From a virus, in the IMG/VR virus record IMGVR_UViG_3300029305_006221, positions 1-64,000 of that record: a stretch of 64,000 nt of DNA; one strand, 5' to 3'. Below, in pieces: positions 5,239-44,349 of the stretch. The notes beneath the pieces were generated by a model. That model searched no databases. It was not told where the DNA came from and was given only the letters and a program-made list of their open reading frames with translations. The position numbers and the translations under genes are program-made. The first letter of the stretch is position 1. Each line of letters starts with the position of its first letter.

Positions 5239-7406
5239 TTATTGAGCTGTATTTATTAAATCTCTAATTGCTGTTACAATCAAATCCAAAGCTTCTATCT
5301 GCTCACGAGAACATTGACTTACGCGCATTCCTTTGCCTAAATAGCTTTCGATTATCTGAGTAATACGAGGCTGCCAATAGGTTTTAAATGTTTCTTCATC
5401 ACTTTGAACTGAAAGATCTTGAATCATTGAATTAAACTGCATCATAAGTTCGTCGAAATCAAGTTCTTTAGATGCGGTATAAAGGTTTGCATCGTTTGTA
5501 GTAAAATGTTCTGAACCTTCTTCTGCAGCCTGCCTATCAATTGCATCACAGATAGCATTTACCAGATTTTGATAAGTGAAATCAATAACATCTGGGGTAT
5601 ATTTGAAACGGCTACCTGCTACATATCGAGGAGTTCCACGCATAAACAATTTAGTAGCGGTTCCTCCTTCAGGCAGATCTACTGTACGAGAATACCCAAT
5701 AATATCTGCCATCCTATTAACGATGTTACGAGGTTTGTTATCGAGAGTAGGGACGATCTGATTGTACTCGTTGCCATTCTGATCCTTAAAAGTCTTATCA
5801 ACTGAATGTGAGATAAGAACTAAACCGTAATTCATTTGAAGAATTGAGCGTAGGCAATCGTCAAATTCTTTAGCCGCCATCTTATAGCCCTTCCCGTAAG
5901 GGATGTCTCCTATTGCATCTACTCCAAAACCGCCATCGGCACGAGGTGCATTTGCGCAAATATATTTTTCACAATAGTCATAAGCTATATCAGCTGTATC
6001 AATAATAATAGTAGAAAAACGCTTTTGGACCTTAGGATCTTTTAATTGGCGAAGAACTTTTCGAAATTCACCCCAGCTATTAACTGGTTGTGCCATAGCT
6101 CCGGGGATTGCATTCCAACCTTTTTCAAAGCCAAGCAATAAGTGATTAGGAAATTTGGTGGCGATTGTAGTTTTACCCTTTTGTTTTTATCTATAGATTT
6201 TTTATTCTATACTCTGGAAATTTCTTTCATTTCTTAATACCGCCTTATATTAAGTCATCGAATGGTTTATTCCATTCCAGTTTAGCATAACTTCTCTTCT
6301 TAAGTCTATCAGAAGTCGTAGACTCGTGGTTTTATTATATTCTATTATTTTGTTCTTTCCACGCTAGATACTTTATATATTTTCTTTGTAAATAAAAACA
6401 TTTTTGTTGGTTCATAAGCTCGTAAAGAGTATTTAAAATCAGTTCAGCTTGTTGAGTTGAATACGTAATGGTATAATAATGTTGTTTCTTAGGCTCTTTA
6501 TAAACTTCACGAGGAATATGAAATACAGTATCAATTAACTGTGTAAAATCTTGAAGAATGTTAGGATCATAAGAACAAATTTCAATACGGCAATATTTAC
6601 CATCATTTTTAAAACATCCATCTCCATCAAAATAGCCTAAGAAAAAAGCTAATTGATATTGTTGTTCAAAAGCAGGGAGTCTCATTCCCTTGTAAGTTTT
6701 ATTGGGAACTATTGAGAATTGTGCTAATTTTTTCTTGTGATTTTCGCTACTCCAAGCCAAAGTTGATACTTGAAAACCTTGATTAGTTTCTTTATCGACG
6801 ATATTTCTTTCAATATCCAGTTCTTTTTGAATTTTTTCCAAAATTTCTCTATCTACTGAACTTAGCCCTAATTTAATAGAATTTCTATCTGGAGTAATAC
6901 TACCATCAGCTGCTAAGAATCCTAGCAACCAAGCCTTTTGTAAAGAATCTATATTATCAAAATAAGAGTGGTTTACTTTTTTCCCTCGTTCTTGATTAGT
7001 AATTCTATTTTGCTCTGCATGGGTTCTAGTTTTAATACCTTGCGCCTATAACATATTTTTTATTTTCTCTGGATAGGTTCCATATTTATTCGCAAGAAAA
7101 GTAAGCGATTTTCCTTCGCTATATAATTGTATCATTTCAGTGATGTCCATATACGGTACATGCTCCTTTCAAAATAATAGGTTCAAAAACTATGCGTTGC
7201 ACGTGGGGTGGCTATTACACCACCCCTTCCGTTCGGGTTATCTCTATAAGACCTTCCCGTTTTTTCTACGATGTTTGCCCTTTAATTTCTTAAAGGGAGA
7301 GCAGTAAAAGTTTACTCTTCGGTTCCCCATAAAAGAATACTGAATATCCTCTAAGGGTGCGACTAACCTAGTGGGGGGCTAGTTCAAGTAAATTAATATC
7401 TGCCAT
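5239..7406 (-). CDS. AAA_24/Sak4-like P-loop ATPase, split by a group I intron. Exon 1 is 7406..7314 (contains one in-frame TAG). Exon 2 is 6177..5239.
   Basis: Exon 1 reads MADINLLELAPH*VSRTLRGYSVFFYGEPKS and exon 2 reads GKTTIATKF.... Joining them restores a perfect Walker A (GEPKSGKTT). IIIDTADIAY and LVLISHS motifs lie downstream. Confidence 0.6.
6178..7313 (-). mobile_element. group I intron (about 1136 nt) inside the Walker-A codons of the AAA_24 ATPase gene; carries a LAGLIDADG homing endonuclease ORF
   Basis: Exon 1 ends in U (..AAGAGU) and the intron ends in G before GGUAAAACU. The exons join in frame. The region is structured and GC-richer than its surroundings. Confidence 0.55.
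6335..7150 (-). CDS. LAGLIDADG homing endonuclease with N-terminal HTH; one in-frame TAG at 7046-7048
   Basis: Two LAGLIDADG motifs (LGFLAADGSI and FLGYFDGDGCF). An N-terminal HTH (MDITEMIQLYSEGKSLTFLANKYG) continues in frame through a TAG. Confidence 0.65.
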
Positions 7407-7422: not shown

Positions 7423-8388
7423 TCAGAAATTAAAGCCACCAGCTTTTGCTTGAGGAGCGGCGGGCGCTGCTACAGGATTATTCTTCTGTGCCTTATACTC
7501 TTCGCTTCTCTTCTTTTCCTCAGCAAGCTTAACCTGTCTATCCTGCATAGCCTTAGTAAGCTCTTCGCCCGTAAGGATGCCTTCTTCACCAAAATCATAA
7601 GGATTCTGTGACGCACGAGTTACAAGCCACTCCTTAGTCTTACGCTCAAAGGTTCTGACAGAGTCACCACCAAATGCAGTCTCTTCCTTAACCTCAGTTT
7701 TTACAGTGTTGCAATTAATAACACCTTCAACCCAAGTGTAAACAGGTTCACTGCCAGAGGCGCCAAGTCCTTCAAAATAGTTCATACCATTAGGATTCTT
7801 AACTGTGAAAGTAAGAGGAAGAAGCTCTTTGCGGAAATTAAATACCGCACCACGAATAGCAACATGCTCGTCAACATTCTTCTCTTCATCTGCTTCTACA
7901 TGAGTTACATTTGTGATAACCATATCACAACGGAAATAAGTTCTTTCTGCCTCGTTTTCAGGAAGAGTATTTACTATTGTTGCAAAACCACCTTCATGCA
8001 TTACCTGAGATACGAGTTTATCTTCGCCATTCTCATTGATATAGAAATCATTAAGTGCAAAAGAAGGCTCAAGCTTAACCATAGGCGCAGCATCCTTGCC
8101 ATCCTTTACCCAGGTCTTGCCACCATCGATAAGTGCCTTAAGAGCAGTAAAGGTATTATTGGTTCCGCCAGCTTTAGTAGTAGGACTTACAAAAGTATAG
8201 TGAACAGGAATTACATTAAGACCTGCCTCATCTACTGCTACCTGGATGGTTCCTGCAATAAACTCCTTACCGAAGTTCTCAGACTTCTCATTCTTTACAG
8301 TCTTAATCTCAAGCATATTTCTTCCATTTGCTTCTCCAAAACTGTAAACTCTTCCTTGAATTGTAATTGAATTCTTTGTGTACTTCAT
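7423..8388 (-). CDS. hypothetical protein (possible ssDNA-binding partner of the adjacent ATPase)
   Basis: 321-aa ORF. Promoter at 8452-8480. Sits immediately upstream of the Sak4-like ATPase. No diagnostic motif found. Confidence 0.4.
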   Translation of the reverse strand: MKYTKNSITIQGRVYSFGEANGRNMLEIKTVKNEKSENFGKEFIAGTIQVAVDEAGLNVIPVHYTFVSPTTKAGGTNNTFTALKALIDGGKTWVKDGKDAAPMVKLEPSFALNDFYINENGEDKLVSQVMHEGGFATIVNTLPENEAERTYFRCDMVITNVTHVEADEEKNVDEHVAIRGAVFNFRKELLPLTFTVKNPNGMNYFEGLGASGSEPVYTWVEGVINCNTVKTEVKEETAFGGDSVRTFERKTKEWLVTRASQNPYDFGEEGILTGEELTKAMQDRQVKLAEEKKRSEEYKAQKNNPVAAPAAPQAKAGGFNF

Positions 8389-8451
8389 TTCTTTCTCCTT
8401 TTTTAATTTAATTATTTTACTTATTTAATATTTTTGTCCAATATCTTTATT

Positions 8452-8480
8452 ATTATAACAAAAATTTTTTACTTTGTCAA
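8452..8480 (-). promoter_or_regulatory. sigma70-type promoter, class A (TTGACA-N17-TGTTATAAT)
   Basis: Motif read directly. Upstream of 7423..8388. Confidence 0.6.
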
Positions 8481-8638
8481 GTTGTTTAGATTAATATCGC
8501 CAGCAATATAAAGCTGAACAAGTTTATATAAAACTTCATCAGCAGGACGAACGCTTCCATCTGAATTGTAAATGGTAATTCCGTGTTTTTTAAGCATGCC
8601 TAAAGCATAATTGAAAGTCATTTGCTCTGCCCAGGTCA

Positions 8639-9022
8639 TTATTCTTCATCCTTGGTTTTCTTTTCAGGTATTACTACTGTTACGCTCATACCAAGTTCGG
8701 TAAGTGAATAACAAGTAGGGGTTCCTTCTGTCTTGCTTACATAACCGTCGGTAATAAGTTTTCTCATGGCGCCAGACACAGTGCGCGAAGAACAGAAGAG
8801 TCCATCTCCTATTTCTTTTGCCTTGAGGATATTATTATAAGATACATAATTCTCCTGCATCCAGATAAGAACCTTTGCGCCGTTTTCTGTGAAAGGAGCC
8901 TTCTCCTTTTCTGGAATTGCCTTAAGTTGCTCAAAGTAGGCGCGGGCGTCCGCTGAAAGGATAGTACAGCTCTTGCAAATCATATCCTCAACTTCCTTAA
9001 TAAATACTTCTTTGTTTGTCAT
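8639..9022 (-). CDS. winged-helix DNA-binding protein (MarR/TrmB-like)
   Basis: SSRTVSGAMRKLITDGYVSK recognition-helix-like segment. 127 aa. Confidence 0.45.
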   Translation of the reverse strand: MTNKEVFIKEVEDMICKSCTILSADARAYFEQLKAIPEKEKAPFTENGAKVLIWMQENYVSYNNILKAKEIGDGLFCSSRTVSGAMRKLITDGYVSKTEGTPTCYSLTELGMSVTVVIPEKKTKDEE

Positions 9023-14828: not shown

Positions 14829-17165
14829 TTATAGTTTTATTACTGATTTAATAATGCTATTTTTAATCATTATATTACCTTGCGCCGTGCGCGCTAAAAG
14901 CGGAATTTCAGTGGCTGATATACAGATACTGTTTGGTGAACCTACTATGAGAAGGTTATCTTCATCACTGATAAGAGCTGCGCCGGACAGGTCTCCGCTT
15001 CCTATCTTTAGACCTTTACCACCCCTGCCCTGAACAGGGAATTCTTCAATCGGGGTCTTGCGCCCCATGCCATTTGCGCTAAATGTTGCAAGAGTGTCAG
15101 TCTTGTGTTTAATAGGCAATCCAGTCAAAACTTCATCACCATCATTTAACTTAATGCTCTTTACACCAGAAGTTACGCGCCCAATAGGAGAGATATCTTT
15201 CGTTTCAAAGCGAATACTCATTCCCTGCTTTGTAATGATGATAAAATCTTCTTCATTAGCAAAGGTAACAGTGGCAAGCGAGTCACCTTCCTTAAACTTA
15301 ATTGCGGCAATACCTGTTGTGCGTTTAGTTTGAAGGTATTCTTCTAACTTAGTCTTCTTAAAGAGTCCCTGCTTTGTAATAAAGATTACATATTCTGCTT
15401 GGCTCTTGCGATATAGAGATGTCATAGCTACGACTTTTTCATCTGCTTCAAGATTTATCAATGCGCCGATACGTCCACCCTTAGAAGCATTGGTTCCAGT
15501 AGGAACTTTATCTACCAAGAGACGATACATCTTACCCTTATCCGTAAAGAACATCAAGGTATCAACGGTGTTAGTAGAAATCATATCAAGGATTGCGTCA
15601 TCTGTTGTCTTTACCCCTTTGCCATTACGTCTCTGCAATTTAAAGCTACTTGAAGGCACTCTCTTAATGTCACCATTTTGCGTAGCTATTACAACACAAT
15701 CTTCAGGCACTACAGTTTCAAGTTCCTTTTCTGCTTTAGGAAGCTCAATCTGTTCAAGACTGGTTCTACGCGCATCGCCATATTTCTTGACAAATGTAGT
15801 AAGGCGCTCGCGCAATACCTCACGCTGCTTAGTTTCATTAAGGAAGAGAGTGTTTAATTCCTCAACTTCTTTGCGCAATTCTTCTGCCTCTTGATTCAAC
15901 TCAACCTTTTCAAGTCCAGCGAGCTTACCAAGCTTCATATCTACGATAGCTTTTGCCTGTGCTTCGGAGAACTTATAGGTGGCGATTAACGCATCCTTGG
16001 CGGCCGTCGCACTTGCAGATTTCTTAATGAGCGCAATAATGTTATCGATATCTTCCAATGCACGAAGAAGTCCTTCAACGATATGAAGTCTATCCTGTGC
16101 CTTTTCCAAATCAAACTGCGCTTCGTTTTGAATACAAAGCAGATTATGGTTTACATAAATCTCGCAACACTGTTTCAAATTAAGCTCTGTAGGAGTCTTA
16201 TCCACAAGCGCGACTTGGTTATACGAGAATGAGGACTGGAGATCGGTCTTTGCGAACAATTGCTTTACGATAGCGTCAGGGTTTGCGCCTTTCTCACATT
16301 CGATAACGATTCTCATACCCTTCTTATTACTCTCGTCTCTTAAATTCTCAATACCTTCAAGTTCTTTTGCATCACAGAGCTTTCCAATTTCTGCAAGAAG
16401 AGCTTCTGTTTGAACTCCATAAGGTATTTCATAAAAGACGATATTTTGCTTTTCAATATTATATCTACCACGAACCTTTACTGTTCCGTGACCTGTTTTC
16501 ATTATTGCAGGGATGTCATTTTTGTTTATTACAACACCACCTGTTGGGAAGTCAGGTCCAGGCAACATAGGCTCAGCGCCATCCATATATGCGAAAATTG
16601 CATCTGCGACTTCGGTTAAGTTGTGTGGCGCCCAGTTACAAGCAATAGCCCATCCAATACCCATATTCGGATTGCAAAGTAAGTTAGGAAACAATGCAGG
16701 AAGAGTCATAGGCTCTTCTGTTGTTTCATCATAATTGCGCATAAAACGCACATTGCGCTTCTTTAATCCTTGCAATAGTCCGTCTTCTGTAAACTTAGCA
16801 AGGCGCGCCTCAGTATAACGATAATGCGCCGGGCCGTCGCCTCCCACATTACCCATGTTTCCGTGGAAATCAATCAGCGGATATCTCATTTCCCAAGGCT
16901 GTGCAAGGCGAACAAGCGCGCCGTAGATGGAGCTATCTCCATGAGGATGGAACCTAGCCATTACATCACCGACGATATTTGCACACTTAACATGAGGCTT
17001 ATTGGAGCTTCTACCCGAATCATATGCGCCATAGATAATTCTTCTTGCAACGGGTTTCAAACCGCTTGTAGCATCTGGTATCGCGCGGTCTTCATTCACG
17101 GCGGCCGCGTACTCAATACAGTTATTTGATAACTCTTGTGTTAATTCAACTTTATTATACTCCAT
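14829..17165 (-). CDS. type II topoisomerase A subunit (GyrA/ParC-like)
   Basis: AIPDATSGLKPVARRIIYG and the catalytic Tyr region. GGAGG RBS. 778 aa from MEYNKV. Terminator hairpin at 14803-14823. Confidence 0.8.
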   Translation of the reverse strand: MEYNKVELTQELSNNCIEYAAAVNEDRAIPDATSGLKPVARRIIYGAYDSGRSSNKPHVKCANIVGDVMARFHPHGDSSIYGALVRLAQPWEMRYPLIDFHGNMGNVGGDGPAHYRYTEARLAKFTEDGLLQGLKKRNVRFMRNYDETTEEPMTLPALFPNLLCNPNMGIGWAIACNWAPHNLTEVADAIFAYMDGAEPMLPGPDFPTGGVVINKNDIPAIMKTGHGTVKVRGRYNIEKQNIVFYEIPYGVQTEALLAEIGKLCDAKELEGIENLRDESNKKGMRIVIECEKGANPDAIVKQLFAKTDLQSSFSYNQVALVDKTPTELNLKQCCEIYVNHNLLCIQNEAQFDLEKAQDRLHIVEGLLRALEDIDNIIALIKKSASATAAKDALIATYKFSEAQAKAIVDMKLGKLAGLEKVELNQEAEELRKEVEELNTLFLNETKQREVLRERLTTFVKKYGDARRTSLEQIELPKAEKELETVVPEDCVVIATQNGDIKRVPSSSFKLQRRNGKGVKTTDDAILDMISTNTVDTLMFFTDKGKMYRLLVDKVPTGTNASKGGRIGALINLEADEKVVAMTSLYRKSQAEYVIFITKQGLFKKTKLEEYLQTKRTTGIAAIKFKEGDSLATVTFANEEDFIIITKQGMSIRFETKDISPIGRVTSGVKSIKLNDGDEVLTGLPIKHKTDTLATFSANGMGRKTPIEEFPVQGRGGKGLKIGSGDLSGAALISDEDNLLIVGSPNSICISATEIPLLARTAQGNIMIKNSIIKSVIKL

Positions 17166-20159
17166 ACTTAGCCTCCTTACTGTGATCCTGAATAAATTTC
17201 TTTCTTGCTGCAACTCCTACGCCCATCAGCTGATCAAACAAAACATCTGCTTTCTTTGCTTCTTCAACCGTAACCTGATTCAACACTCTTAAGCCTGGGT
17301 CTACAAGAATTTCAGTCTCGTCCTCTGACATCTCGCCTAATCCTTTGAATCTATTGACCTGATACTTTTTTCCTCTATTTTTCTCTTGAAACTCAGCCAA
17401 CTCTTTATCGTCTCTTAAATACAGATAAGTATCTTTACCCATCGTAATCTTATAGAGCGGCGCCACAAGTGCATATACATATCCATTTTCAATTAAAGCG
17501 GGGCAAAAATTCCATATAAATGTGTAAAACAAGTTTCTAATGTGTGCCATTAAACATTAGAATTGAGTATTTCTCCTGACTATCTTTTACTCTCTGTTTG
17601 AGAGGAAACCATTTCAGCATTTAATGGACTTCGTTTCCTAAAATCCAACTGCGTACCAATAGCAGCCTTACTTCCTTGCCCAGAAGGCTTAAGGAATAGT
17701 CGATACAGGTCAAATATTAACCCATTTTTTTTCTTTTTTCTTGTAAATAGGAAGGTTATCATAATAACGACCCCATAAAATCATTTGGAAAGTTTGATAA
17801 GCGACTCTGTTTTTATAATCTTCATAAATTTGCTTCGCAGTTTCATTAATATAACGAGTGCGAATAGCAATAATTTCTTCATCTGTAAAATGAGCATCTT
17901 TACCTTTTGAGCCACGGCTATTTTCATAGATGTAATAATCTTTATTCTCTTTGGTAAAAACCTCGGGCATAATGTGTGCCCAAGTTCTACCCTGCCAAAC
18001 AGATTGAAAGTTACTAAAAGTAGTTTTATCTTTAAATAATTCATATACATCTTTTTGGCGAAGATGCTTAGCGTATGCTTTACGAATTATCATAACATCT
18101 TCTTCGTTTAATTTTGCATTACCATTTAAAGAACCAACAGATGCTTGTTCTCCTCCGGGATTACAATTGTATCCATTTGGATAACTTTTATAATAAGCAA
18201 TCCAATACTGTTCTCTTTCATTTAATTGCTCTAATGAACATTCTTCTAATATCTCAAAATCAAAAGCTTCAGTTCCATATAAACCAATAGCTACGTCTAC
18301 TGGGATATCGGTTCTATCTCCTCTTTTATGCTCAGAGAAGCGCCTTTTTATATCATTAGTTTGTCCAATATAACACTTTCCATTAGATTTTTTAGTAATT
18401 TTATAAATTCCTATCATAATATATCTCCTTTTTGTATTTGGAGATAAGAGTTAATAAATGTTCCCACGGGATTACCAATACTCAGGCTTCCCCGTTAGCA
18501 TTGAAAAATTCTTATCTCTGTTCTATTATTATATGAAAATCGTACTAATCACATATTCTAATTTTAACCAAAAATTTTAAATTTTTCAATACCCTGCTGG
18601 TTAGCAGTAAAGTTTTTCATCGGCGCAACTTAAACTCGTTCACCGTCTGCATCCGCATCGGCAGCTATAATAATCTTCCCATAGCGCAGTGAGTCTTTAT
18701 CATACGTTAGCTTCATTGTTTTCGGATCGGTTTTAAGACCAAAGGCTTCAATCATAGTCATAATTTCTGCATTCTTTTGAATTTTATCTAAGGCTGCTTT
18801 TTGCGTATTTAATATCTTTCCGCGCACGGGCAGCACTGCTTGAAACTCATTATCGCGGGCAGCTTTCATATTGCCGGAGGCGCTATCGCCTTCCGTCACG
18901 TAAATTTCACAGTTAGCGCGAACCTTTGAATAACAGTCTGCTAATTTTGAATCAAACTTAAGCGCCTTTTCCTTTTTCTTTTTATCGCCTCGAGCCGCGT
19001 CGCGCGCCTTTTTAGCAGCTTCTCTTGCTTTCCTTGCAGATAAGGCTTTTTCAATAATTGTTTTAAAGGCATTTTTATAAGAAGATGTTAAATCTCCAAG
19101 AGCTTGAGTTGTTAGCTTCTGCGCATAAGTTCTACCTTCAGAAGAACTAAGCTCCTCTTTATTTTGTCCTTTAAAAACAGGATCAATCATCTTAAAGTTT
19201 AGAATTAAAATCATACCTTCTTCATAGTCTGAACCAGTAAGATTTTCTTCTTTTTCTTTAATTAACTTATTTTCTCTTGCAAAATTATTTAATCCCATTG
19301 TCCAAGCTGTTTTAAAACCTGTCAAATGAGTTCCTTTTTCTTGGGGAATATTGTTTGTATATAGTTTAATAACAGAAGAATAAGATTTACTATATCCAAT
19401 AGCAACCTCGAGTTGAAACTTACCTTCTTCGCTATTGAAGTAGAAAGGATCAGCTATAAACTCTCCTTTTGGATTTAAATAATCCATATAATCTGCAAGT
19501 CCGCGCTCAGAATAGAAATCTTCTTTTGTATCTAAAACGGTATAAATAAAATGTAGCCCTTTGCATAAAAAGCTAAATTCTCGAATCATATCTCGAATAC
19601 CTTTAATATCAAACTCTACTGTTTCAAGGACTTCTGGGTCAGGATAGAATTCAACAGAAGTTCCAGTGATCGATTTGTCAATTTTATTCTCTTTATGAGA
19701 AATAAATTGACCTCTTGAAAATTCTACGATTTCTTCAATGCCTTCGCGGCGGGTTTTTACAATCATAGATTTAGATAAAGCATTTACAGCCTTACCTCCA
19801 GTTCCGTGTTCTCCGCCAGAAGTATTATATCCAGATTCTCCAGTAGCATTATCAAATTTACCGCCAGTATTTGCAATACCAAAACAAGCTTGAAGCACAC
19901 TACAACCACTTGGATGTTTACCATGCGGAATGCCGCGCCCATTATCTTCTATGCGAATACCATTGTTTGGTAAAATAGTTACTTTTATTTGATTACCAGC
20001 TCCATTTAAATATTCATCAATACTATTAGAAATTATCTCTTTTACACAATGAAGTAATCCTTTTGCATCCTTACTTCCTATATACATACCGGGATACTTT
20101 CGGATATGCTCAAAGTAATCAAGAGATTTAATATTATCTGCTTGATAATTTTGTGTCAT
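17155..20159 (-). CDS. type II topoisomerase B subunit (GyrB-like), split by a group I intron. Exon 1 is 20159..18642. Exon 2 is 17547..17155.
   Basis: Exon 1 carries the GHKL ATPase (YIGS, NGRGIP) and TOPRIM EGDSA. It ends ...IIIAADADADG. Exon 2 starts AHIRNLFYTF...KGLGEM. The join recreates the conserved DxDxDG-HIR block. Confidence 0.75.
17548..18641 (-). mobile_element. group I intron (about 1094 nt) in the gyrB-like gene, carrying a GIY-YIG homing endonuclease
   Basis: U before the 5' splice site (GGU|GAA). G before exon 2 (..UUUAAUG|GCACAC). Structured GC-richer 3' region at 17580-17700. Confidence 0.6.
17710..18417 (-). CDS. GIY-YIG homing endonuclease (I-TevI-like), intron-encoded
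   Basis: MIGIYKITKKSNGKCYIGQTNDIKRRFSEHKRG. 235 aa. Confidence 0.75.
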   Translation of the reverse strand: MIGIYKITKKSNGKCYIGQTNDIKRRFSEHKRGDRTDIPVDVAIGLYGTEAFDFEILEECSLEQLNEREQYWIAYYKSYPNGYNCNPGGEQASVGSLNGNAKLNEEDVMIIRKAYAKHLRQKDVYELFKDKTTFSNFQSVWQGRTWAHIMPEVFTKENKDYYIYENSRGSKGKDAHFTDEEIIAIRTRYINETAKQIYEDYKNRVAYQTFQMILWGRYYDNLPIYKKKEKKWVNI

Positions 20160-21519: not shown

Positions 21520-21595
21520 TGGCGGCGGAGGTGAGATTCGAACTCACGCATATGCACTTTTAGAGAGTGCCGCCTTCCCGCTTGGCTACTCCGCA
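21520..21595 (-). tRNA. amber suppressor tRNA, anticodon CUA, tRNA-Gln-like D-arm
   Basis: Cloverleaf folds. Anticodon loop is CU-CUA-AA. D-arm AGCCAAGCGGGAAGGC matches the tRNA-Gln D-arm. T-arm is GUGAG/UUCGAAU/CUCAC. CCA is encoded. Own promoter (21625-21653) and terminator (21489-21510). Confidence 0.8.
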
Positions 21596-39940: not shown

Positions 39941-40461
39941 ATATAAGTGGCAGTAAGTTGCCAGCCGCGTATTGCTTTTCCTTATGGTTCCATTTGCTCT
40001 ACCAAGAGTTGGATTACTCCAACGAAAATAGAAACTTTAAGTGGATCGGCGTTGCCTCTATTCCACTTTTCCGCGTTGTCGACTTACGCTTAACCGTTTT
40101 ACTTTTTATCTGCGTCCAGACCTGCTTATTGCTTACAGGTGTTTCTATATAGATGCACGCATCTTTGGGCAATCCAAATTATGGCGGCGTGCCAGCCTCT
40201 GGCGGAGAGCTGAGGTGTCGATCCCCATACGGGTACTAGCCGTACCAACCGTTTTCAAGACGGTGTTGCGAGCCGTCGCAATTAACCCTCCATATAAAGC
40301 AGAGGTTATCGTACTCTGCGCAGTCCCATATGGCGCCTTGTAAAGACTGCAACGATTCGACTATTCGCTATCGACAAACGCTACTTCTGATTGTGGATGG
40401 TCCACCAATACGCTTCCAACTTAGGGAGTTTCACCTTTTATGTCGCCGCATTAACGACAGC

Positions 40462-40553
40462 TGGCAGCGAGGGTGAGACTTGAACTCACACACCGATTAC
40501 TCGATTACTGGTAGGTTAGCAACCTACTGCCTTACCAATTAGGCTTACCCCAC
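40462..40553 (-). tRNA. class-II tRNA-like gene (Ser GCU-like anticodon arm), atypical. The acceptor pairing is unresolved and may indicate a pseudogene.
   Basis: Anticodon arm GUAGG-UUGCUAA-CCUAC. The variable arm contains a tandem AGUAAUCG repeat. T-arm GUGAG/UUCAAGU/CUCAC. 3' ..GCCA. Confidence 0.35.
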
Positions 40554-40873
40554 TATAAGTGATAAGCTGCGCCAACATACGCCCTTATCTTGTCACTGTG
40601 TTTTACAACCCGTCAGTGAGCCAGTTGTTGGGTTTTTCCCTCTGCGTAATGTTGGGCGCTTTTGGGGAGTTGTCCTTCTCCTGTTAAGGCATTCGCTCTA
40701 AGCTGCTCTTACTTAGTGGGGCCGCTTTATTCCCATACCTTATGTATTGTGTGTTCCACTTGCGTTTTCTCTTCTTAATCGGTTTACACACAACCTTCCA
40801 CTTGAAGCGCCACTAATTTATATACCGAATCTGGCTTTCATCGGTGAGTATGATATCGATCCCTTTAAGGGAC

Positions 40874-40961
40874 TGGTGGGGGAGATGAGATTCGAACTCA
40901 CAGCGTTTCTAATGTACGCGATTTTAAGTCGCGGGCGTCTCGCCAATTCCGCCACTCCCCC
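40874..40961 (-). tRNA. tRNA-Leu (UAA), class II
   Basis: Acceptor GGGGGAG/CUCCCCC-A-CCA. Anticodon arm CGCGA-CUUAAAA-UCGCG. Long variable arm. Confidence 0.7.
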
Positions 40962-40990
40962 GTGTCGCCTCATAGTGAGGCTTTTGCGCC

Positions 40991-41335
40991 TTAACAGACG
41001 CGAACAAAATGATACATCATTGGATGATGAGTATCTGCAAAAGACATATCTCCAAAAGCATTTTCAAATTCTTTATCAATAGCATCTGTTTCATATTCAA
41101 ACCAACAGATAGCGTCTATTGAGTCAAGATCAATTTCTCGACCAAGAGTGACTCCAAAATAGTAATCACCATAGTTGCCATAGGCATTATCTGTGATAAA
41201 TGAGTACTTGTCAGTTCCATCGTACTTATCGCAGAACTCTTCTATGAACTTACCTGTTTCTTCCTCAAGGCGCTTAATTTCACTTTTAGATATTTTATAT
41301 CCATAAATTAAAACTGACTCATAATCAACACTCAT
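40991..41335 (-). CDS. hypothetical acidic protein inside the tRNA island
   Basis: Start MSVDYESV. Promoter at about 41365-41400. Confidence 0.4.
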   Translation of the reverse strand: MSVDYESVLIYGYKISKSEIKRLEEETGKFIEEFCDKYDGTDKYSFITDNAYGNYGDYYFGVTLGREIDLDSIDAICWFEYETDAIDKEFENAFGDMSFADTHHPMMYHFVRVC

Positions 41336-41431
41336 TTTTTCTTTTTTCCTCTCTTTCATCTTACATATATATTATATCATAAATTTTTGTAAAAATCAAA
41401 GAAGTTTCATAGTAATTGATTAAAATTTCAT

Positions 41432-41520
41432 TGGTGGGCGATGAGGGAATCAAACCCACTCGAGTCACAATGACGCTAGATTTACAGTCTAACCCGCCTA
41501 TCTTAACGGTTTAATCGCCC
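41432..41520 (-). tRNA. tRNA-Tyr (GUA), class II
   Basis: Acceptor GGGCGAU/AUCGCCC-A-CCA. Anticodon loop CU-GUA-AA. Variable arm stem GUCA/UGAC. Confidence 0.65.
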
Positions 41521-41587
41521 ATATAAAATAACTTTAGGTCAGTCAACCACACATCTATTTTAACCTCGACATTTGTTCTCTGAGGAC

Positions 41588-41677
41588 TGGAGCAAGATGC
41601 TGGAATCGAACCAGCATTAATGGAGTATATAACCCGTCCCTATAACAGGCGCGTATAACCTATTCCGCCAATCTTGC
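41588..41677 (-). tRNA. tRNA-Leu (UAG)-like, class II, A33 in anticodon loop
   Basis: Acceptor GCAAGAU/AUCUUGC-U-CCA. T-arm GCUGG/UUCGAUU/CCAGC. Anticodon arm CCUGU-UAUAGGG-ACGGG (one G-U pair). 17-nt variable region. Confidence 0.45.
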
Positions 41678-42001
41678 ATATAAAATGAGGCGCCAGTGCA
41701 TGCTACAGCCAAGCCGGCAGTTACCCATCGCCGCCTCTCTTGGATTTATGGGTGCGGATATCGGTACTGCCCCGATCACCCTGAGCTTATGAGGCTCTGG
41801 TGAGCACTATGCCCATCCGCGATATAAAGTGAGAGTTTACAGTACCCTCGGAACCTTATCCCAACTTCCCATTAAGTACAGCCAAGTTGGCACTGTACGC
41901 CTGATTTTTATTTATACTCCCACTCGGACAGGAGTGGCGCGACCTTAAGAGATTAACTCTTCCCCATCGGCGCTCTTATTAGTTGATGGGCGGCATTAAT
42001 A

Positions 42002-42076
42002 TGGTGAAGCTTGAAGGAATTGAACCTTCGCCTAAGCGCTGAGAACGCCTCGTTGTAACCACTTAACTAAAGCTCC
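42002..42076 (-). tRNA. tRNA-Glu (CUC)
   Basis: Anticodon loop UU-CUC-AG. Acceptor GGAGCUU/AAGCUUC-A-CCA. Confidence 0.6.
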
Positions 42077-42126
42077 ATATGAGGGACAGTAATTTCGATT
42101 ACGCGCTGTACCTCTGACCGCGTTTC

Positions 42127-42203
42127 TGGTGATGCCGACAGGATTCGAACCTGCGAATATAGGGATGAAAACCCTAGGAGTTAAACCACTTCTCAACGGC
42201 ACC
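42127..42203 (-). tRNA. tRNA-Glu (UUC)
   Basis: Anticodon arm UAGGG-UUUUCAU-CCCUA. Acceptor GGUGCCG/CGGCAUC-A-CCA. Confidence 0.65.
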
Positions 42204-42416
42204 GCATGCCTTGATGCATTTAACGCTCATCAAGTAGCGTGGTGTTTTCTCTCGGATTACTCCCTAACCGCCCTTTGATTATGCCACCTCGCAACTCACA
42301 AACGGGTAATTTGTTGCGCCATATCTTCATTAAATACCCTACACCGTCACTCCATCAACGGCGGGTTTATCTAAACGATTTTACTAATATAGGATTATCG
42401 TGAACCTATACATAAG

Positions 42417-42490
42417 AGGGACTTAACGGACTCGAACCGTTGCCACATAGCTTATCCATTCTACTGCTCTACCATCTGAGCTAAGGTCCC
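42417..42490 (-). tRNA. tRNA-like gene, atypical: the anticodon stem cannot be paired and there is no CCA. May be a pseudogene.
   Basis: Good acceptor, D-arm (GCUC/GAGC) and T-arm (AACGG/UUCGAGU/CCGUU), but the central UGGAUAA loop region lacks a stem. Confidence 0.3.
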
Positions 42491-42905
42491 ATATTCCAAG
42501 GGGTTCGTATCGCGGTTATCCCCACCGCGTGTGTACACAAGCATTTTCAGACTCCTAACGGTTGTCTACTGATGCTTACAGGTATTTCCCGCCTTTATTC
42601 ACCCACTTTTGCAATTCGCTTGCAGGTTGGAGAACAAAAGTAAATGCAGCTCCTATGCGGAGGGTTCTCTCTCTTTCACACCCACAACGTCAGCTCCGTC
42701 ACGAGGAAGCCACGCTCATTTTTTCATAGGAGTTGAGTATTCTCCCAATGTCACGCAGACCTCATGCAGTCCTTGCGACTATACCAAGCGTAGTTGTCTT
42801 TCAGACTTTCACGGGACTACGCAACTCCGTTCACTTTTTGCTTCTTTGCTTTTCTATTGTATATATATTATATCATATTTTTTTAATAAAATCAATAGAG
42901 AATGA

Positions 42906-43124
42906 TTAAACGATAATAAAATCGCTTATATTTCGATAAATATCATTCTCTGCTTCGCACCAGAGTTCATCAAACTCCATTGCATAAAGTGCGCCAAGCA
43001 ATGATTTTGCATTAACCTTAAGCCCCGCTCCATCGGTGATATGAACTGCGCCTTCCATCTTAGTTGTGATGTTAACAAACTCTTGAACATCACGCATTGT
43101 ATCAAGTCTTATTTTTGCTTTCAT
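42906..43124 (-). CDS. small HPr-like (phosphocarrier-fold) protein (tentative)
   Basis: VNAKSLLGALYAMEF resembles the HPr VNLKSIMGVMSLG segment. 72 aa from MKAKIRLD. Confidence 0.3.
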   Translation of the reverse strand: MKAKIRLDTMRDVQEFVNITTKMEGAVHITDGAGLKVNAKSLLGALYAMEFDELWCEAENDIYRNISDFIIV

Positions 43125-43247
43125 TTTTTTTTCTTTTCTTCCTCTCTCATTATTACATATATATATTATATCATATTTTTTTATAAAAATCAATAATTGC
43201 GCAAGAAATTACTTTTAAATGCCTTAAGATATGGATTAAAATGTTTT

Positions 43248-43322
43248 TGGCAGGGGACCTAGGATTCGAACCCAGACCAAGCGGGTTGGAGCCGCGTATG
43301 CTAGCCGTTACACCAATCCCCT
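43248..43322 (-). tRNA. tRNA-Trp (CCA)
   Basis: Anticodon loop CU-CCA-AC. Acceptor AGGGGAU/GUCCCCU-G-CCA. Confidence 0.65.
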
Positions 43323-43329
43323 ATATCTC

Positions 43330-43575
43330 TCATAAAACCTCCCACCAAAACTCAGAAATTTTACGATATCTTCCTTTGCTGCCTAAATCGCCTTTATAGC
43401 GACGGACAGCGCGATTACATTTTCGCTTAACAAAGCGAACTCGCTCTGGCATTTGATATCTGCGATAAATACCTTTTTCTTCATCATAGTAAACACCTTT
43501 ACCATACCAAGTTTTGGTTTGGGAATAACAGTGTTTATCTCGTCTTCTTTGGTCTCTACTTCTTTTCCAACCCAT
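43330..43575 (-). CDS. small highly basic protein
   Basis: 81 aa, Arg/Lys-rich, between tRNA genes. Confidence 0.3.
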   Translation of the reverse strand: MGWKRSRDQRRRDKHCYSQTKTWYGKGVYYDEEKGIYRRYQMPERVRFVKRKCNRAVRRYKGDLGSKGRYRKISEFWWEVL

Positions 43576-43654
43576 AAGCCTCTCCTTTCTGAGTGGGTAT
43601 TATTATATTAAAATTTCTTTTAATACTTTAATTACTTTTGAAAAAATTTTTACC

Positions 43655-43807
43655 CTAATCTTCCATAGAGCGACAGTCGTGCGCCTTTTCACGCTTGCGA
43701 TTATGTTTCTTCTTACTTTCAATTACTCTTGTATGCAGAGAGGGCGAGTTGCGCATTCTTTCTTTACGCATAGCTTGAGTCTCTTTTGCTTCAAGCGGCT
43801 TTTTATT
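43655..43807 (-). CDS. small highly basic protein
   Basis: Start MSNKKPLEAK. Arg/Lys-rich. Confidence 0.3.
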   Translation of the reverse strand, partial: NKKPLEAKETQAMRKERMRNSPSLHTRVIESKKKHNRKREKAHDCRSMED

Positions 43808-43906
43808 ACTCATTTCCTCTCTCCTTTTGTTTATTAACACAAACTCGACCACACGCGTCCCACCGTCCTGTTTCATACGCCTAAGCCTTGTCCGTCGGTT
43901 GTGTAT

Positions 43907-43981
43907 TGGCACGGGATAAAGGAATCGAACCCTTGTCTTGGCGTCCGTAGCGCCACGTTCTGTCCATTAAACTAATCCCGC
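43907..43981 (-). tRNA. tRNA-Arg (ACG)
   Basis: Anticodon arm UGGCG-CUACGGA-CGCCA. CCA encoded. Confidence 0.7.
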
Positions 43982-44108
43982 ATAAAAATGCAAAGGTATC
44001 TAAGGCGATTCTGATAGAGTTGTCCTTTGCTAGTGTTTTTATCTCTATGTTTAAACACTTCTTTCAGTCTTTATATAAACCCGAATAGAGATGAGGTTTA
44101 TATCGCAT

Positions 44109-44185
44109 TTGGTGCGCCACCAAGGGCTCGAACCTTGGGTCTGCTGATTAAGAATCAGCTGCTTTACCACCTAAGCTAGTGGCGC
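44109..44185 (-). tRNA. tRNA-Lys (CUU)
   Basis: Anticodon arm GCUGA-UUCUUAA-UCAGC. Acceptor GCGCCAC/GUGGCGC-A-CCA. Confidence 0.7.
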
Positions 44186-44274
44186 ATATTTACTTCCAAC
44201 CGCCGAACGGGTAGCACGGTCATCTGGTCTCCTTTTGCGGCGAGACGCTTACTACATTCCCCATGTTGTCCTTG

Positions 44275-44349
44275 TGGCACGGGATAAAGGATTCGAACCT
44301 TTGGCTTATCGCTTAGAAGGCGATTACTCTTCCGCTGAGTTAATCCCGT
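44275..44349 (-). tRNA. tRNA-Arg (UCU)
   Basis: Anticodon arm AUCGC-CUUCUAA-GCGAU. CCA encoded. Confidence 0.7.

Follow-up and report, generated by a model that had tools for sequence, protein, structure and literature searches.

A probable IA2-like group I intron with a GIY-YIG endonuclease gene at the DxDxDG motif of a phage gyrB-like gene

In a 64,000-nucleotide (nt) stretch of viral DNA (the window) from the record IMGVR_UViG_3300029305_006221, a gyrB-like gene is found in two pieces, separated by a gene for a GIY-YIG endonuclease and adjoined by a gyrA-like gene, all on the minus strand. Do the open reading frames (ORFs) of 509, 235, and 131 amino acids (aa) represent separate genes, or one gyrB gene interrupted by an intron? 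An earlier note, made from the letters alone, had proposed a group I intron with an I-TevI-like endonuclease, splitting the gene at the DxDxDG motif. The analysis described here leads to a similar answer: the gyrB-like gene is very probably interrupted by a mobile phage group I intron of 1094 nt, which is IA2-like. The three ORFs would then be annotated as one gene for a 636-aa GyrB plus an intron-encoded endonuclease, an arrangement missed by gene callers and by the Rfam model.

The ORF that contains exon 1 (20159..18630, 509 aa) has Pfam matches to HATPase_c, DNA_gyraseB, and a truncated Toprim domain (profile positions 1–71 of 96). Its C terminus reads ...IIIAADADADG-ERV, with the stop codon three codons past the motif, as the earlier note had described. 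The ORF that contains exon 2 (17550..17155, 131 aa) starts M-AHIRNLFYTF, runs on to KGLGEM, and matches DNA_gyraseB_C (E 1.4e-16, Pfam). It is the continuation of GyrB, colinear with an intron-less homologue, and the insertion splits the gene between ...DADADG (GGT) and AHIRNL. The distance from GGT (18642) to GCA (17547) is exactly the 1094 nt of the earlier note, and the stretch between the two ORFs is 1079 nt. When GGT (18644..18642) is joined to GCA (17547..17545), an in-frame protein of 636 aa results; the earlier estimate of about 637 aa corresponds to the codons including the stop. The predicted spliced protein was searched against ~5.8 billion proteins. Uninterrupted homologues of 632–639 aa were numerous, and dozens of them have 636 aa, which bears out the proposal that the length is typical. 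The best homologue is 97% identical, 636 aa long, and colinear across the junction. There is no annotated relative to compare, because deposited phage genomes contained no close relative of the window GyrB, all being <40% identical.

One of these best homologues is encoded by an intron-less allele on a 120-kb contig, L123. The DNA of L123 can be aligned with the window to either side of the insert (91.6% and 90.1% identity), and it lacks exactly 1094 nt. The codon alignment is colinear without an indel, AADGDADG-SHIRNLFYTF in L123 corresponding to AADADADG-AHIRNLFYTF in the window. The insertion is therefore real and not a chance arrangement of ORFs. L125, from a second, independent metagenome, is a 99.6% identical copy in which the insert and its tail are present. 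Since L123 lacks the insert and L125 has it, the intron is polymorphic among very close relatives, as expected of a mobile element. An intein, or another insertion removed at the protein level, might be considered here, as type IIA topoisomerase and replication genes often host inteins (PMC4760082). The reading frames refute it and leave it a negligible probability: the insert is not in frame, with a stop three codons after DADADG, translation of the endonuclease has a start codon and ribosome-binding site to itself, and no Hint domain was found with Pfam.

The insertion in the window belongs to a family. Scanning IMG/VR for the P/Q (P4) motif yielded at least 119 contigs. A homologous intron is present at the same motif of a gyrB-like gene in 33 other viral contigs, usually with gyrA next, and related contigs are 120–180 kb in length. 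The insertions occupy three staggered sites, designated classes A (10 loci, window included), B (17 loci), and C (7 loci). The class A site follows GGU of DG. The class B site lies 7 nt upstream of it, after GU of a Val codon (phase 2), and the class C site 12 nt upstream, after GCU of Ala. At the same sites, six loci have ORF-less introns of 221–347 nt.

A P1 helix can be formed at the proposed 5′ splice site of the window, with five of five pairs and a U·G pair at the splice site itself. The U/G boundaries of the earlier note hold, since the base before the 5′ junction is U and the intron ends in G. The last base is also G in all 34 related introns, and the boundary in the window is set by the intron-less allele. 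Across relatives, the guide co-varies with the exon and the first intron base (CGGU^C/GGCCG, UGGU^C/GGCCA, ACGU^C/GGCGU, and CGGU^A/UGCCG, where the caret marks the splice site). Class A introns have the guide GCCG, and class B introns have GCGU. In class C introns, UUGGC pairs with GCU^AA when matched by hand. As to the 3′ splice site, an alternative position at the first UAAUG (17555), where the covariance-model alignment described below ends, was rejected because it puts exon 2 out of frame and conflicts with the intron-less allele.

The secondary structure of the core was analyzed with an alignment (A1) of 26 distinct cores, four of which naturally lack an ORF; any ORF in the others was taken out. 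P4/P5, P7, P7.1, P7.2, P8, and P9 were recovered by RNAalifold. After the addition of P6, of P3 as a pseudoknot, and of two hairpins, P7.2a (inserted) and one named P3a (extra), 72 pairs were counted. Over the 26 introns, 95.3% of the cells pair, as against 37–45% when the 3′ partners are slid by 1–3 columns. Compensatory changes, with both sides altered, occur in 44 of the 72 pairs, and none of 500 shuffles reaches any of five measures. P7 and P4 are invariant and themselves carry no covariation evidence. The covariation of P3 is clear (AGACU/GGUCU, AAACU/GGUUU, AUACU/GGUAU, and ACACU/GGUGU). Another P3 partner, a GAGA motif just upstream of P4, was rejected because the pairing breaks down in class C introns, whereas covariation of AGACU/GGUCU is seen throughout. 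In the P6 helix of the family, 10 of 12 pairs show compensatory changes. Every helix except P9 is fully formed in the window, and the classical P, Q, R, and S elements can be read by eye in the insert (GCUAACGGGGAA, AAUCCCGUGGGAA, GUAUCGACUAUUCC, and AAGAUAGUC). The structured 3′ region of the earlier note proved to hold P7, P7.1, P7.2, P3′, and P8 in 17578..17701. P7.1 and P7.2 between P7 and P3′ are a signature of subgroup IA and are arranged as in intron 2 (I2) of Twort orf142.

The link to this Twort intron was made with a covariance model. R1, a model of the 3′ half, was derived from 25 relatives (alignment A2), with the window left out. It matches the window once (17711..17555, 107 bits, E 1.5e-28) and Twort orf142 intron 2 with 46.6 bits (E 2.5e-11). 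GenBank AF132670 annotates orf142 as containing group 1 introns, and an I2 sequence matches this entry at 97%. By direct reading, the order GACUAU-P7.1-AGUA-P7.2-GAAAUGG-P3′-P8-J8/7-AUAGUC-P9 is common to the window family and I2, and the intron in the window is therefore IA2-like. The joining segments are nearly identical, with P8-..GAUAUAGUC-P9 and a GGAAAC loop. I2 is a proven self-splicing ribozyme with a crystal structure (Protein Data Bank (PDB) entry 1Y0Q). Unlike the window intron, the Twort introns lack an ORF and include P2, and their P3 is followed immediately by P4, with no counterpart to P3a found by eye. Homology was also detected to introns in other genes. The 135 nt just 3′ of the endonuclease ORF are 77.5% identical (blastn) to a segment of Enterococcus phage EF1. 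This segment is located shortly after a DNA polymerase III alpha (polIII alpha) gene that is split by an intron, between the next annotated coding sequence and an adjoining ORF that is annotated as hypothetical and has N-terminal GIY-YIG motifs by eye. A 65-nt stretch is 83% identical (blastn) to Lak megaphage DNA, in a gene that can be read by eye as a split nrdD. R1 gives 109 bits on the EF1 intron and 64 bits on the Lak nrdD intron. The EF1 and Lak introns are of the same family by their 3′ cores (77–83% identical, blastn), and the EF1 intron shares the P4 motif and the placing of a GIY-YIG ORF in this loop as well; both differ from the window intron in host gene and guide sequence. By structure and descent, the insert is almost certainly a group I intron. 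The coordinates are listed in Table 1.

Table 1. Features of the interrupted gyrB-like gene and its predicted group I intron (window coordinates).
Feature	Position	Strand	Description	Basis
gyrB-like exon 1	18642..20159	-	506 codons; ATPase, transducer, first part of Toprim; ends DADADG, GGT at 18644..18642	ORF; Pfam; colinearity with intron-less 636-aa homologue
Group I intron, IA2-like	17548..18641	-	1094 nt; starts GAACG, ends UAAUG; terminal G at 17548	Missing from L123; core structure; covariance-model match
Internal guide sequence CGCCG	18621..18625	-	Would pair with exon CGGU (18645..18642) and intron G+1 (18641) to give P1	
P3 5′ strand AAACU	18611..18615	-	Pairs with GGUUU (17610..17606); pseudoknot with P7	95% of cells paired; compensatory in 4/5 pairs
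Extra hairpin P3a	18594..18607	-	CUGCU-AACC-AGCAG, between P3 and P4	Compensatory in 3/5 pairs
Variable peripheral extension	18503..18587	-	Closed by GAAAAAUU/AAUUUUUC	Minimum free energy (MFE) fold
P4-P5-P4′	18464..18498	-	CUAACGGGG ... UCCCGUGG; classical P and Q elements	P4 invariant; P5 co-varies
P6 5′ strand UAUUAACUC	18448..18456	-	Pairs with GGGUUAAUA (17723..17715)	Pairing in the window read by eye
Hairpin sequestering the endonuclease Shine-Dalgarno	18422..18446	-	UAUCUCC...GGAGAUA	MFE -7.8 kcal/mol
GIY-YIG homing endonuclease gene	17710..18417	-	235 aa	Pfam PF01541, E 3.6e-12
3′ catalytic core	17578..17701	-	P7, P7.1, P7.2 with P7.2a, J GAAAUG, P3′, P8	Covariation; model R1; blastn
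P7	17701..17696 / 17583..17578	-	GACUAU / AUAGUC	
P7.1	17695..17673	-		
P7.2 with inserted hairpin P7.2a	17668..17616	-		
P8	17604..17590	-		
3′ tail	17548..17577	-	Poorly formed P9; terminal ..UAAUG	
gyrB-like exon 2	17155..17547	-	130 codons plus stop; first codons GCA CAC (AH of AHIRNLFYTF)	ORF; Pfam; colinearity
gyrA-like gene	14829..17165	-	Likely start ATG at 17165 behind AAGGAGG	Pfam DNA_topoisoIV and five DNA_gyraseA_C repeats

Several observations count against an intron that splices. The Rfam model RF00028 (Intron_gpI), whose use the earlier note had recommended as a check, has no match in the whole window at the gathering threshold (50 bits), in 17000–18800 with E up to 10, or in the 3′ part alone, and it also misses ORF-less gyrB introns. 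The window intron has no P2 between P1 and P3 and has an unusual hairpin and extension between P3 and P4. Its P9 is degenerate; pairs were flagged as noncanonical, and the fold is no better than those of shuffled sequences (z = 0.02). Lastly, the ORF of exon 2 starts with an ATG exactly at the junction. The miss by Rfam is probably due to the ~0.7-kb ORF in P6 together with the extra 5′ domain and the absent P2. It is not evidence of the absence of a group I intron, because the model also misses the annotated ORF-containing introns of EF1 and finds all three Twort introns (64–101 bits), which have no ORF, and the ORF-less family member L073 (60 bits).

The ATG at the junction bears on the alternative named in the earlier note, a split gene without splicing. 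In this case, an endonuclease cassette would have cut gyrB into polypeptides of 509 and 131 aa that reassemble, and the ribozyme-like RNA would be a relic. Such splits are known from T4 gp39/gp60 after the insertion of MobA and from Aeh1 NrdA after the insertion of MobE. The ATG stands precisely at the junction, exon 1 stops three codons past it, P9 is weak, and split phage topoisomerase genes have precedent (bioRxiv 10.1101/2022.08.31.505936). However, no Shine-Dalgarno sequence precedes the exon-2 ATG, whereas gyrB, the endonuclease gene, and gyrA have AAGGAG-type sites at 7–8 nt. Class B introns likewise end in A(U/C)G, there out of frame with exon 2, and ACG is found in the class A locus L040; because of its frame in class B, the terminal A(U/C)G is a feature of the intron rather than a start codon. 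In 24 class B and C loci and in L040, an in-frame ATG is missing from the junction end of exon 2. A free-standing endonuclease cassette cannot explain the ORF-less introns at the same sites. Furthermore, the core helices other than P9 are intact in the window and co-vary in the family, and conserved extension tails at the C or N terminus, as in the genes split by MobA, are missing. The split-gene alternative is disfavored by these features and appears improbable.

The degenerate P9 raises a different possibility, a decaying intron. The element would be a group I intron by descent that no longer splices efficiently, leaving gyrB as a pseudogene or poorly expressed and the phage dependent on the host gyrase. 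The P9 hairpin is kept in 24 of 26 relatives and not formed in the window, with the unremarkable fold mentioned above. On the other hand, P1 and all elements of the catalytic core are intact, and the endonuclease ORF and the two exons remain open and conserved. L125 has the same tail, and its occurrence in an independent metagenome suggests that the phage is viable and in circulation. Changes in P9 are tolerated by many group I introns. Taken with these points, decay is hardly probable, and an intron that splices to give the 636-aa GyrB remains highly likely.

Here, we propose how the intron would be removed, inferring its activity from the features described above. The gyrB gene would be transcribed through the intron, and P1 would be formed between the guide CGCCG and CGGU at the end of the exon. 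The core from P3 to P8, in which P7 would hold the guanosine site, would then catalyze the two transesterifications. Splicing would join GGU to GCA and restore ...DADADG-AHIRNL... in GyrB, with a predicted ligated exon junction of ...GCAGACGGT/GCACACATT....

With P6 paired as in Table 1, the endonuclease ORF lies within the P6 loop, and its final codons (..KWVNI and the stop) double as the P6 3′ strand. The GIY-YIG ORF of the earlier note was recovered by PF01541 with 46.8 bits (cut-off 22.6 bits). Residues 3–85 align with the catalytic domain of I-TevI (PDB ID: 1LN0 and 1MK0; E 3.8e-7 for 1LN0), including GIY, YIG, KRRF, ERE, and NGYN, and the catalytic domain is intact. The aligned KRRF, ERE, and NGYN motifs presumably contain the catalytic Arg, Glu, and Asn of I-TevI. 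PHROG 7168 ("homing endonuclease") matches residues 1–230 with E 1.7e-29. The C-terminal 148 residues (88–235) match no Pfam family even at E up to 10. A C-terminal DNA-binding domain of the I-TevI type (zinc finger, minor-groove helix, and helix-turn-helix) was not found there, and the PDB match covers the catalytic domain only. The designation as I-TevI-like in the earlier note thus applies to the catalytic domain and not to the C-terminal part. Class A and B endonucleases are 57–68% identical to that of the window, and class C endonucleases are 44–48% identical. The ribosome-binding site of the endonuclease is held in a hairpin, and an equivalent Shine-Dalgarno hairpin of different sequence was found in 12 of 13 other distinct leaders that were folded. 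This resembles the translational restraint on I-TevI, for which Gibb and Edgell are said to have described in 2010 a regulating hairpin that holds the ribosome-binding site.

By analogy with I-TevI, the endonuclease encoded in the P6 loop would cut intron-less gyrB alleles in co-infecting phages, and repair would then copy in the intron together with flanking exon sequence. A co-conversion-like tract is present at the junction. The 330 nt around it are 73% identical to the intron-less allele, compared with 94% over the remaining gene (Fisher p ~3e-26). We infer that this tract was left by homing through co-conversion; selection for endonuclease-resistant empty sites is an alternative that would account for the same divergence.

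That essential phage genes can contain group I introns with endonuclease ORFs is classical knowledge, and the T4 td intron with I-TevI, of group IA2, is a close parallel. In each case, a large virulent phage has a group I intron in an essential gene of DNA metabolism, with a GIY-YIG ORF in the P6-region loop and homologous catalytic domains. We also take the P4 of the window (ACGGGG...UCCCGU) to be the same as that of td. The two differ in the host gene (thymidylate synthase for td, gyrB here), in the C-terminal half of the endonuclease, which in the window has no detectable I-TevI DNA-binding domain, and in the peripheral structure, the window intron having no P2 and the extra hairpin plus extension between P3 and P4. 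In the alignment A1, the extension at 18503..18587 is gapped in the shortest relatives (L013, L028, and L059). As a side observation, the smallest members of the family (L013, L028, L059, and L073) have a short form of the hairpin plus extension (18503..18607) or none, and it may be a lineage-specific peripheral domain.

The nearest thematic parallel is the 39/mobA/60 system of T4, which likewise involves the large subunit of a phage type IIA topoisomerase and the same hot spot. In the T4-like phage vB_Eco_F26, the 50-nt coding gap of gene 60 directly follows the Gly codon of DADHDG (..GAT CAC GAT GGA TAG, the gap, and TTA GGT..). The gene 60 gap and the window intron share the codon boundary after DG, and therefore the DNA encoding DxDxDG appears to be a shared hot spot, with ribosome hopping in T4 and predicted RNA splicing here. 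The two systems differ in how the interruption is dealt with. T4 relies on ribosome hopping and, MobA (an HNH endonuclease) having been inserted, on translating two polypeptides separately; in the window, a ribozyme is predicted to remove the interruption at the RNA level. The codon boundary of the T4 gene 60 ribosomal hop would thus also be used by a self-splicing intron.

In Bastillevirinae (PMC11878797) and in the Jug gut jumbo phages (PMC12880540), IA introns with HNH, GIY-YIG, or LAGLIDADG ORFs commonly split essential genes, and metatranscriptomes confirmed splicing of 37 of 76 predicted introns in the Jug phages (PMC12880540). Neither survey describes an intron in gyrase or topoisomerase: the words "gyrase" and "topoisomerase" do not occur in PMC11878797, and PMC12880540 counts topoisomerase IV among the intact core genes. 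The limited literature searched contained no mention of a phage gyrase or topoisomerase gene split by a group I intron. The type of element is well known, and ideas on how such elements work are unchanged. What is added is the Toprim motif of type IIA topoisomerases as a target of phage group I introns, with gyrB as a host gene for which no earlier report was found. The at least 34 gyrB introns, with three staggered sites, matched guides, ORF-containing and ORF-less forms, and close empty sites, provide material for studying homing, site switching, and endonuclease specificity. A broader proposal, which we consider evenly poised between right and wrong, is that these introns form a large, undescribed phage lineage (at least 119 IMG/VR contigs) that has moved repeatedly between the gyrB sites at 0, -7, and -12 nt by changes of the guide (GCCG, GCGU, and UGGC) and into polIII alpha and nrdD, with the T4 gene 60 boundary as a general hot spot of mobile elements and a P3–P4 domain that was not seen in the Twort introns examined. 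If this is true, the lineage would be a natural record of ribozyme retargeting.

Other interruptions were seen in the fetched loci. In L060, L069, L114, L020, and L081, exon 1 is split again near residues 423–448 (around window residue 424/425), and a distant GIY-YIG ORF (36–39% identical) is found there. This is presumably the EGDSA region of Toprim, and the second split suggests another possible intron hot spot in gyrB. The class A intron of L088 (~7639..8891 in locus coordinates) is 1258 nt long and has an extra insert of ~200 nt in the P8 loop. The insert contains two GGTTCGAA(A/T)CC motifs that resemble tRNA T-arms; a tRNA was rejected despite these motifs, as ARAGORN finds none. Further group I introns lie nearby in L047 (528..826, minus strand) and L023 (1998..2225, plus strand), with Rfam scores of 88–98 bits. 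An HNH-containing intron is present in EF1 polIII alpha (L001, 237..1063), and L073 has a weak R1 match (6016..6127). From these additional predicted introns, the phages of L047, L023, EF1, and L073 would each carry several.

Downstream of gyrB, the stop codon and the likely gyrA start overlap by 11 nt (17155..17165), and the overlap is identical in the intron-less L123. This suggests that translation of the two genes may be coupled. The program-made ORF list puts the gyrA start at TTG 17213 instead of ATG 17165. Elsewhere in the window, 19 tRNA genes are packed in ~8 kb (36154..44349), and one more lies at 21523..21595, all on the minus strand. Together with the gyrB and gyrA genes, this array points to a putative large virulent phage.

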